Notes under the pieces: generated by a model | The model's database searches: none | What the model saw: only the letters and a program-made list of their open reading frames with translations | Told to the model about the DNA's origin: nothing | Position numbers and translations under genes: made by a program | Shown here: piece after piece, positions 6,610-46,677 of the stretch | How the letters are laid out: every line of letters begins with the position of its first letter | Numbering within the stretch: the first letter of the stretch is position 1 | IMG/VR virus record: IMGVR_UViG_3300025108_004499 | Reading direction: 5' to 3' (one strand) | Source: a virus | Length of the DNA: 64,000 bases

Positions 6610-6783
6610 TTATTTTAGTTTGTCAACATCTTTTTTGTCTGCTCTACCTTTTTTTCCGCAGTGTGGACAATGAAATGTTGTTCGTTCAATGCAATACTTG
6701 TCTTCCATAGTAGCGAATGTAAACCAGCCCTTACATTGAGTGCAGGTTAAATGCCATATGATTTCTTTTACCGCATTGAACAT
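6610..6783 (-). CDS. Small zinc-ribbon protein (57 aa)
   Basis: MFNAVKEIIWHLTCTQC...FHCPHCGKK; two CxxC pairs; TAAATA box upstream. Confidence 0.7.
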   Translation of the reverse strand: MFNAVKEIIWHLTCTQCKGWFTFATMEDKYCIERTTFHCPHCGKKGRADKKDVDKLK

Positions 6784-6810
6784 TGTAAAAGTATTTAGCT
6801 TACCTATCTT

Positions 6811-6963
6811 TTAGATTTTTTGTAATCTTGGATCTGAACTTAGTATGTTCTTTTCAGCTCTTGGTCTAGACAAACGATTCTCAGCCATTTTGCGTATTAT
6901 TGCTTTATGTGCTAGTTCTGTTTTTCTTTTCTTACGAGCTAGTTCGAAGTCTTTGTGATTCAT
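6811..6963 (-). CDS. Small basic protein (50 aa) downstream of glutamine riboswitch
   Basis: MNHKDFELARKKRKTELAHKAIIRKMAENRLSRPRAEKNILSSDPRLQKI with GGGAG RBS. Confidence 0.65.
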   Translation of the reverse strand: MNHKDFELARKKRKTELAHKAIIRKMAENRLSRPRAEKNILSSDPRLQKI

Positions 6964-6987
6964 AACACTCTCCCTTTTACAGTTAAG

Positions 6988-7033
6988 TGCGTTCCTTCGC
7001 TTAGTGCTACTTCCGGGCTTATTGCCTGAACGT
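6988..7033 (-). promoter_or_regulatory. glnA-motif (glutamine-I) riboswitch
   Basis: ACGTTCA-GGC(AATAA)GCC-CGGAAGTA-GC(ACTAA)GC-GAAGGAACGCA matches the glnA RNA three-way junction/E-loop consensus. Confidence 0.8.
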
Positions 7034-7037
7034 AATA

Positions 7038-7415
7038 TTATTTAGCTCTAGATTGGTAGTCTTTTATTGCTGATTTGATTGCATCTTCGGCAAGTACACT
7101 GCAATGTATCTTAACTGGCGGTAGTGCAAGTTCTTCTACAATGTCCATATTCTTAACTGCTGATGCTTCGTCTAGTGTCATTCCTTTTACCATTTCAGTT
7201 ACTAAACTTGAACTTGCTATTGCACTACCGCAACCGTAAGTTTTGAATTTAGCATCTACAATAACGTTATCTTCTACTTCTATCTGTAGACGCATAACAT
7301 CACCGCAGGCAGGTGCTCCTACCATTCCTGTTCCGATGTTATCTTTACTAGGATCAAACTTTCCAACGTTGCGGGGGTTTTCGTAATGGTCCATTACTTT
7401 TTCTGAGTAGGCCAT
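7038..7415 (-). CDS. iscU: Fe-S cluster scaffold IscU
   Basis: YSEKVMDHYENPRNVG, GAPACGD, GCGSAIASSS, LPPVKIHCS. Confidence 0.95.
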   Translation of the reverse strand: MAYSEKVMDHYENPRNVGKFDPSKDNIGTGMVGAPACGDVMRLQIEVEDNVIVDAKFKTYGCGSAIASSSLVTEMVKGMTLDEASAVKNMDIVEELALPPVKIHCSVLAEDAIKSAIKDYQSRAK

Positions 7416-44256: not shown

Positions 44257-46677
44257 TTATTTATCAAAGATATAACTTTCTATCTGTGCAAGTGACGACC
44301 ACGCTCGTTCCGTTGCAATGTCAAATTTAATCTCTGATGCTTCTATCCTCTGTATATCCTTGCTAATTTGTATAGCTCGTTTTGCAAATAGTGCGTCCAT
44401 ATAGTGTTTAGATACTTTATCGTCTAATTTTATAATATCTCTAATACAATGCCCAGGACCGTTTTCTGCTGTAATCTTTGCAATAGCAAGTGCCGCGGCC
44501 TTAGTAAATGTAGTAACTACGTGCTTATTAGTACTTATGTCAAAGATACGATAACCGTTCTTATGTTTTCGTATAACTATGTTCTTAACACGTATACTAT
44601 TGCCTTTTTCATAGGGAATTGGCAACTCGGATAGTCCGTGTACTATAATTTCTTCTAGTTCTTTTGCTAATTCTTTGTCAAAACTCATTCGCTACGACCA
44701 TTACAGTTCCATCATGTATTAGTTTACTTACTAATGCTTTGCGTATCAGACCCTCAATTACGAATCTGTCCCTCTCTGAATAACTGTCTAATGATCTACA
44801 ATCGTTACATCTTTTCAATACTGCCCGCTCTTCATTTGTGCATTGAATAGTAAAATGTTGTATGAGTGAATTTATTTTCATTTTATACTAGCAATCTGTT
44901 GTTTCAAACGCATTGTAGTATCTTTGTGGCTTTTTTCTTGTGCTTTTAATTGTGCTTGTAATGTTTTCTTTTGCTGTTGCATAACTTTTGGATCTTGCAT
45001 AGATATATCGTCTATTGCTTGTCCGTTATCTATACCACCTTGTGCGCCAGGCTTTGTGCTTCTAGCAGTCTTAATAGTATTCACAGCATCTTTGCCCATC
45101 TGTACTGTATTCTTAACAGCATTAACACCCTTCTTGGCCATGTTAACACCTTGCTTGGCTACATTGACACCCTTCTTGGCTATGTTGCCTGCTGTTCTTA
45201 AACCTTGTCCTGCCATCTTCGCACCTTTAAAAGCGGCCATTCCAGCAGTTCTTGCGCCTGCAACTAAAGCTGGTACTATTTCGTCCAATTGTTCTTCAGT
45301 TAGATGTGGATACATTTCCTTTAACTTTTGTCTTTCGTCTATTTTAAATTCATGTAATCTCATTACTTCATCCTTTTACGTTTTGCTGTTGAACGTCTTG
45401 TTGGTTTCATTCTAGTTTTGTTTAGTCTTGCAATACGTTTTGACTGAGCTCCCATTCTCTTTTGGAACTTAGTCTTAATACCAATTAGTGGAGACTTTCT
45501 AGCTCTAGTCTTTTTCATTGTAAGTTTAGCTTTGACATTAATAGGAGCATTACAAGTTGTAGCTTTCGCAACAATACGACCTTTGCGTGAGCCACTAGTA
45601 CAACGATACTTGCGTGTTACTTTACCTTTGCTTCTACCAAAAGTAGTAACGGCTCCTTCTGTGATAATATCTGATATAATCATCTGGCTCTCTTGTTCAA
45701 TCTTTTCAATGCAATTGAAGCTGGATTTGTACGCTTAGTTCTCTTAGCCTTACGTGCCATTCTAGCACCAAGCCTAGCTCTTGTACGCTTCATTGATATT
45801 TTCTTTTTAATGTTGGGTGCGGCAAAGCATTGTCCTATTGTAGAAACAATACGGCCTTTACGCTGTCCACTTGCACAACGATATTTTCTTACAATTTTTT
45901 TACCTGTTCTGCCCCATATTTGCTTTTCGCTTAGGTCAGAAGATACGATCTCTGTTACTAACATAACAGTATTTATGTAATTTGATTATGAAAAGTTAAC
46001 AAGGAGAACTACGATGGTACTAAGTAGTCCTGCAACAATAGTGCCAGTTGCACCAATAATTACTTTTGTTAATGATTTGTTACCGTGATTGATATCAGTA
46101 TGGATATGTTCGACCTTAGCTTCAATTTTATCTAAACGTGTTTCCAAGTTGATGTAACGCTGTTCACATAAGTCAACATGTGCTTCTAAGTTTTCACGTT
46201 CTAAATTTGTGGCTTTTGTTTTGGCCATACTATATTCTCCATTCGTATTAGTAAACTCTAAGTTAGCCTAATTAAGTGTTGTTACTCTGCCTTGAATATA
46301 ATGTTTTTAGCCTTTGGTGTTGTTCTGAACACATTATTATTTAGCTGAATTGTCTCATTTAATTGACCAATAACAGGAACTAAATTAAAATCTTCTTCAA
46401 GAGCATCAATGGGTGGAAAGTATTGATATTCGTCTGTTGTACACTCAACTTCCCATACTCTATGCTTACCAGTGTAGTCAGTACCAAAGCCTAACTTCTT
46501 AAACTCTGCCGCAGTATAGTCTGTAGCAACAGGTGCTTCACAATATACATTTGTTCTAAGCATCATAGTCTGTACAAACGTCATCCAATTGGCTTGTTGA
46601 CCAATAGCAGTTCTATCTGTACTATTGTTTCTGCGTTGTTTTGTTTCGCTGATGTCAATTAGTGAATATACTTTCAT
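44257..46677 (-). other. Cluster of short late genes (44257-44688, 44678-44881, 44878-45363, paralogous basic 45363-45683 and 45680-45964, TM-tailed 45986-46228, 46282-46677)
   Basis: Mostly translationally coupled ORFs behind TAAATA/TAAGTA boxes; two share RKYRC.SG.RKGRIV...C. Confidence 0.65.

Follow-up and report, generated by a model that had tools for sequence, protein, structure and literature searches.

One of the closest described counterparts of the locus reported here is the glutamine riboswitch that Synechocystis sp. PCC 6803 has in its gifB (IF17) leader. In the model of that leader, the ribosome-binding site is paired with the linchpin C and the bases following this C until glutamine binds and frees the site (PMC6212724). 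The switch is experimentally ON with glutamine (Klahn et al. 2018, PMC6212724). The linchpin pair, G23-C60, is ligand-dependent and joins a junction G to the C just 3′ of P1, according to the account in PMC11477058 that cites the crystal structure of Ren et al. 2015.

Glutamine aptamers are also known from marine metagenomes, and the related Downstream-peptide motif has small ORFs behind it (Weinberg et al. 2010, PMC2864571). T4-like cyanophages have glutamine riboswitches among their non-coding RNAs (PMC9602691), and such switches were also reported in the OM43 phage Melnitz and the Pelagibacter phage Mosig (Buchholz et al. 2022, PMC9004378). The Melnitz aptamer was read as controlling the tmRNA gene (ssrA), and the small ORF downstream of it went unmentioned (PMC9004378).

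Here we describe such a riboswitch in the window, i.e. the whole 64-kb stretch of viral DNA that was analysed. We consider it probable that the locus is a self-contained mobile cassette made of a late-promoter-like box, a type-1 glutamine riboswitch, a 22-nt expression platform and a 50-codon gene, working by the control logic given below. The RNA switch is of a known type, as phage glutamine riboswitches were published earlier for cyanophages, Melnitz and Mosig (PMC9602691, PMC9004378). In this respect the locus is less new than an earlier note on this DNA assumed.

A type-1 glutamine riboswitch by covariance model and covariation

The cmscan search matches RF01739, the type-1 glutamine riboswitch or glnA RNA, at 6986-7034 on the minus strand with 42.5 bits, the gathering score being 35. 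Positions 1-53 and thus the whole model are covered, the E value is 6.8e-6 over the 64 kb and 5.3e-8 for the local 501 nt, and this is the sole riboswitch match within the window. The glnA-motif assignment of the earlier note, read from the letters alone, passes the Rfam check by this score and length, and the sequence quoted there is the minus strand of 7033-6988. The extent given there, 6811-7033, needs two corrections: the strand is minus throughout and the upper end of the aptamer is 7034, one base farther.

P1 pairs CGUUC (7032-7028) with GAACG (6994-6990), P2 pairs GGC (7026-7024) with GCC (7018-7016) around an AAUAA loop, and P3 has just 2 bp, G7007/C7006 with G7000/C6999. J2/3 is CGGAAGUAG at 7015-7007. 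All bases of this strand and of GAAGG, the conserved junction strands of the E-loop region, are present within the enclosing P1 (7032-6990). The linchpin bases are present as G7013 and C6989, the latter after the GAAGG strand, and are invariant among 44 leaders. Their pairing is predicted, the role of the two bases being carried over from PMC11477058.

An alignment of the 44 leaders has standard pairs in 99.4% of its cells, and the pairing falls to 26–48% when the 3′ partners are slid. Five aptamer pairs are altered on both sides, and none of 500 shuffles matches the observed values. Two-sided change is seen in all three P2 pairs (UA:23/GC:21, CG:25/GC:19), with P2 alternating among GGC/GCC, GCC/GGC and UCC/GGA across the leaders. 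Of the 103 distinct viral P2 segments, 102 form a hairpin of at least 3 bp. P1 is paired in all 44 leaders, its single double change from CGUUC/GAACG to CGUUU/AAACG being that of phage Mosig, and P3 is weakly variable. By covariance model and covariation, the window element is a bona fide glnA-motif (type-1) glutamine riboswitch and presumably binds glutamine.

A conserved gene for a basic orphan microprotein

The ORF behind the aptamer occupies 6811-6963 on the minus strand and has 15 K/R against 6 D/E residues over 50 codons. The distance to its ATG (6963-6961) is 22 nt from where the Rfam match ends and 26 nt from P1. It is the K/R-rich ORF of 50 aa that the earlier note had placed about 25 nt downstream of the aptamer, and it is present as described.

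The peptide has 36 homologue clusters with 65–100% identity, nearly all of 50 aa, on contigs of up to 221 kb. Cluster look-ups find the family on hundreds of contigs, where every label is hypothetical. The 53 distinct coding sequences from 76 viral loci are all intact, with 27, 23 and 45 variable sites at codon positions 1, 2 and 3, respectively. Their pN/pS is 0.27 in the reading frame versus 1.0–1.3 in the two other forward frames; the reverse frames give 0.45–1.25, lowest in the frame that shares its third positions with the true one. Judged by this conservation and the in-frame pN/pS, the 50-codon ORF is a real gene under selection.

AlphaFold2 with the family alignment models a single long helix over residues 3-32 (mean pLDDT 83), followed by an extended conserved tail, SRPRAEKNILSSDPRLQKI. 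In a broader alignment the conserved core is the C-terminal part, with the consensus LRKRSKDSIARPKAEKNILSxDPRMQxI. A profile search of 1.8 billion protein representatives yielded just 45 small relatives. Two long proteins from the same search (P0052 and P0080) matched via repeats or low complexity and were not accepted as homologues.

Scans of the peptide and 20 family members against Pfam, PHROGs and NCBIfam gave no match, nor did Pfam at E up to 0.1 for the window peptide. PDB sequence searches with two family profiles found nothing credible, the best being geminin with E 0.23. By these searches the microprotein belongs to no known family and is an orphan.

Linkage of aptamer and gene and mobility of the unit

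The aptamer lies upstream of the peptide gene in 76 of 76 related viral loci with 38 distinct leaders. Because it precedes the homologous ORF in every one of them, the aptamer-ORF feature is not a chance arrangement.

In the window the upstream neighbour is iscU (7038-7415, minus strand; Pfam NifU_N, E 2.5e-52), which stands outside the unit. The iscU stop codon TAA is at 7040-7038 and the aptamer begins 4 nt later, directly after the stop as noted earlier. This context between iscU and a DNA ligase gene is common to only about 10 of about 80 related loci and is retained in relatives of the window's phage. In many of the others, the unit follows speD or the T4-like genes for prohead protease, scaffold and gp23 (major capsid), and in one 36-kb contig it comes after a tmRNA gene. 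Tandem aptamers are found in relatives such as L167, and in a 221-kb contig two of them precede the same peptide.

From these varied surroundings, the aptamer and the gene together are a mobile phage unit that moves between contexts. Since the cassette is mobile, the gene neighbourhood is uninformative on the function of the peptide. The neighbourhood of a riboswitch-linked related peptide of 70 aa in a Pelagibacteraceae MAG (L257) holds no functional hint. A hairpin plus T-run terminator follows the ORF in 5 of 49 downstream contexts, so we do not claim it as a part of the cassette.

Several features were observed around the cassette. In the gp23-linked contexts it is followed by other structured RNAs, manA RNA (RF01745) and freshwater-2 RNA (RF02980), at L199 6213-6418, L177 6494-6577 and L135 6508-6590, which make an RNA-rich gap downstream of the capsid gene. 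On a T4-like phage contig, a 578-aa TonB-dependent receptor with Plug and beta-barrel is encoded immediately after the cassette (L169 6489-8225).

Across the viral contigs L001-L120, a small basic ORF lies about 20–35 nt behind nearly every glutamine aptamer. These ORFs form at least seven unrelated families, including a 64-aa NGxGTSGY family, YRGV repeats, 30-aa W-C peptides, MKTKNNWQL, and MTKYQ...NPFYP behind tandem aptamers.

A late-promoter-like box before the aptamer

T4-type late promoters have no −35 element, and their TATAAATA-like −10 element is placed a few bases ahead of where the transcript begins. A CTAAATA box, which we take to resemble the T4 late promoter TATAAATA, lies at 7045-7039 on the minus strand. 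The box shares bases with the final codons and the stop of iscU, and 6 nt separate its end from the CGUUCA of P1. A search for a sigma-70-like site between iscU and the aptamer found none.

Of the 48 unique contexts of this peptide family, 44 have a TAAATA box 5–9 nt ahead of the aptamer, most often at 6 nt. The box is found before viral glutamine aptamers generally in 61 of 104 contexts. Among 116 cellular contexts it occurs in 11, where no distance is favoured, and the background is 1–2% of 22-nt windows. In many contexts the box stands right behind a terminator hairpin that belongs to the preceding gene, and many of the cassette carriers are T4-like. Window-wide, CTAAATA is not enriched, with 19 found versus 17 expected. 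The position and recurrence of the TAAATA box make it a putative promoter and suggest late transcription starting at the aptamer.

Among the 19 CTAAATA sites of the window, 15 are on the coding (minus) strand. A second box is located at 6792-6798 on the minus strand, 9 nt before the ATG of the next gene (6610-6783, minus strand), which encodes a zinc-ribbon-like protein of 57 aa that has four Cys in CxxC pairs.

Hosts and relatives among phages and cells

The window carries an alphaproteobacterial-type permuted tmRNA, 26 kb from the aptamer. In tblastn searches of 50,697 phage records, relatives of the peptide occur only in four Pelagibacter phages. Mosig gene 116 (Mosig_00116) encodes a 51-aa protein of 40% identity behind its own RF01739 aptamer of 50 bits. 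The podovirus HTVC023P has gp47 (L122 2501-2653), 48% identical and with no aptamer, which overlaps the end of the preceding gene. The other two homologues are in HTVC103P and HTVC104P. The lack of an aptamer at gp47 implies that the peptide can work without glutamine riboswitch control.

The tmRNA type and the restriction of peptide relatives to Pelagibacter phages make a SAR11-type alphaproteobacterial host likely, in line with the host surmised in the earlier note. The microprotein family is confined to SAR11-type marine phages in our searches. The NrdA of the window gives no placement of the phage, its identity being about 72% to cyanophage proteins as well as to Mosig.

Cellular contigs (L203-L322) also have RF01739-pattern aptamers, often in tandem, before amtB, glnA, gltB and some small ORFs. 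The carriers are uncultured Alphaproteobacteria including Pelagibacteraceae, SAR116 and Rhodobacterales, SAR86-type Gammaproteobacteria and other marine heterotrophs. A 468-aa protein encoded behind cellular aptamers is presumably of the circularly permuted ATP-grasp type, recognised by eye. As the same aptamer occurs in the genomes of marine heterotrophs, its signal is one that the likely hosts have of their own, and the class reaches beyond cyanobacteria.

Nitrogen assimilation as a possible target

For the microprotein, the most likely mode of action is binding to a host protein or to the ribosome. It might be a functional analogue of IF7/IF17, or another regulator of host nitrogen assimilation acting on GS or AmtB and made at high glutamine, although we regard this as rather unlikely. 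Such a role would follow the gifB-like logic of an RF01739 aptamer near the SD of a small basic protein gene (PMC6212724). Moreover, glutamine is the nitrogen signal of the likely host lineages, judging by the same aptamer in front of their amtB, glnA and gltB, and the modelled shape of a helix plus tail would suit a protein binder.

However, no sequence relation to the known factors was found. The hallmark of IF17, DUF4278 (PF14105) with its YRG motif, was not found in the window peptide by Pfam at E up to 0.1. An hhalign comparison of the family profile with seven riboswitch-linked IF7-like peptides gave a probability of 0.06%. The mobility of the cassette denies this role any help from neighbouring genes, and PII, one of the proposed targets, is reportedly absent from SAR11. 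With no Pfam or PHROG match either, the gifB-like effector on the GS/PII pathway that the earlier note envisaged gains no support here.

Expression platform and direction of control

The expression platform occupies 6964-6990 on the minus strand and includes the SD AGGGAGA (6975-6969). The 3′ tail of the aptamer, GCACUU (6990-6985), is complementary to GAGUGU (6970-6965), which adjoins the SD and ends two bases before the AUG. In the ligand-free minimum-free-energy fold of the leader, the tail/GAGUGU helix is present and P1 is absent. The whole-leader fold is no more stable than those of shuffles (z −1.09), and the tail helix is short with 5–6 bp including G-U pairs, overlapping the SD core by at most three bases (GAG, 6968-6970).

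The tail and the post-SD bases co-vary over 97 distinct phage leaders with differing downstream peptides. Examples are CACCU/GGGUG, CACUU/AAGUG or GAGUG, CAUCU/AGAUG, CAAUC/GAUUG and CACCC/GGGUG. When permuted over the 21 tail classes, the observed helix length was reached in 55 of 5000 permutations and the observed duplex energy in 0 of 2000. Because the helix hardly varies within the peptide family of the window, its covariation comes from the other cassette families.

Since the platform has the same arrangement as that of the gifB leader, we read the window element as a translational ON switch, a direction drawn from this likeness. At low glutamine, the tail GCACUU, which includes the linchpin C, would pair with GAGUGU beside the SD and impede initiation. 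With glutamine bound, P1 and the linchpin pair would retain the tail and the ribosome site would open. The microprotein would be made only at a high host glutamine pool, and its production would probably occur late in infection. Of this scheme, the aptamer with its covarying stems, the coding gene and its strict linkage to the aptamer, the complementarity of tail and SD region, the promoter-like box and the mobility of the unit are observed. That glutamine binds, that it turns the gene ON, that transcription is late and what the peptide acts on are what we infer.

The opposite direction, a real riboswitch that turns the gene OFF at high glutamine, appears unlikely. The sequence alone gives no certain direction, and the cellular copies of the aptamer precede amtB, glnA and gltB, which glutamine should repress. 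However, the cellular leaders before these three genes are long (62–88 nt) and have a different platform, whereas the phage platform shares the short tail/SD layout with the experimentally ON gifB switch (PMC6212724). Moreover, the occluding helix is already formed in the ligand-free fold, which speaks for the ON switch.

The ribosome as a possible target

As to what the ON switch would deliver, the microprotein could alternatively be a ribosome-binding factor. Its basic helix would come from, or mimic, the C-terminal helix of bS21 and retune translation late in infection. We find this quite improbable. Family members share a local match, RKKRKTE(E/L)(A/S)xK, with SAR11-type bS21 (BLASTP E 0.003–0.04 in single comparisons), over which the peptide and bS21 genes are identical at 20 of 21 nt. 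Also, an 83-aa protein, P0063, fuses an N-terminal part of bS21 (Pfam E 4e-17) to the C-terminal part of the peptide family.

On the other hand, profile-profile comparisons by hhalign with SAR11-type S21 gave probabilities of just 0.5% and 1.2%. Pfam S21 (PF01165) matches neither the window peptide nor any plain family member, only P0063, and basic A-rich codons make short matches easy. Furthermore, P0063 is on one contig of 537 nt, the halves of which match different contig sets with a 21-nt overlap, as in an assembly chimera.

P0063 (L323 146-397) carries, behind its bS21 part, the C-terminal 30 residues of the peptide family. Its contig matches S21 contigs at 97% and peptide contigs at 81.5%, joined at the 21-nt shared stretch. 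Judged from these halves, it is probably an assembly chimera and possibly a rare recombinant. The odds that remain beyond the nitrogen and ribosome roles go to another host target.

The gene under control in Melnitz and in the window

At the DNA level, the aptamer-leader matches only four Melnitz isolates among the 50,697 phage records, with 89% identity over 56 nt that span the 3′ part of the aptamer and the leader. The Melnitz aptamer is located 3′ of the tmRNA. On the same strand, 26 nt behind this aptamer, comes an unannotated ORF of 32 codons, MTLYQQWCY... (L123 2553-2651), the stretch from aptamer to ORF being L123 2482-2651 or about 46398-46567 of MZ577097.1. The Melnitz record annotates instead a hypothetical gene (no. 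89) on the opposite strand.

The Melnitz aptamer is 3′ of the tmRNA and runs into the ORF, and 26 kb separate aptamer and tmRNA in the window, so it is the small ORF that is regulated. The published tmRNA reading of the Melnitz switch is corrected accordingly. Control of a neighbour instead, i.e. the tmRNA as described for Melnitz by Buchholz et al. (PMC9004378) or iscU or the downstream ligase in the window, is very improbable even with the aptamer directly after the tmRNA in Melnitz and in contig L324, since a 5′-leader switch cannot act on a tmRNA or iscU that it lies 3′ of, and since the small ORF stays in place about 25 nt downstream as the neighbours change from context to context.

Significance and comparison with known systems

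In phages of SAR11-type heterotrophs, the item under glutamine control is a tiny, usually unannotated gene and not the tmRNA as published for Melnitz. The function of the peptide is testable, owing to the cultured representative, Mosig gene 116 of a phage on Pelagibacter HTCC1062, and to hundreds of marine contigs. The linkage of the late-promoter-like box to the aptamer suggests that the phages join infection timing with a nutrient signal. The wide spread of the aptamer in marine Alphaproteobacteria (Pelagibacteraceae and SAR116) and SAR86 extends its class beyond cyanobacteria.

Tentatively, and with a low chance in our estimate, SAR11-type phages may use glutamine-gated microproteins on a central host process, nitrogen assimilation or the ribosome, only late and only in a nitrogen-replete host. 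The nitrogen-assimilation example would be a GS inhibitor, IF7-like in function and unrelated in sequence. If true, phages would encode a nutrient checkpoint that operates in the most abundant bacteria of the ocean, and with either target this would bear on the viral steering of nitrogen flow in the surface ocean.

Compared with the gifB leader of Synechocystis sp. PCC 6803, the window has an aptamer of the same family with the conserved junction bases and the linchpin C. Both aptamers directly precede the SD of a gene for a small basic protein, and both have a 3′ tail complementary to the ribosome-binding region. The window element differs in being phage-borne in a SAR11-type, non-cyanobacterial setting, in its minimal P2 and P3 (3 and 2 bp) and in its shorter leader (22 nt). 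The promoter is NtcA-controlled at gifB, whereas the window has a T4-late-promoter-like box, and the window product lacks similarity to DUF4278/IF17 or IF7.

Melnitz and Mosig have the same aptamer, and the Melnitz expression platform is nearly the same as that of the window. The small ORF has 32 codons and is unannotated in Melnitz, and has 50–51 codons in Mosig and the window. The glutamine/Downstream-peptide cassettes of cyanophages and picocyanobacteria likewise combine an aptamer with a very small conserved ORF within about 25 nt and are, like the present one, common in marine viral contigs. The window aptamer is single and simple by comparison with them. In contrast to the DUF4278/YRG cassettes of cyanophages, the cassette of the window encodes a different peptide family with no YRG motif and belongs to pelagiphage-type genomes.
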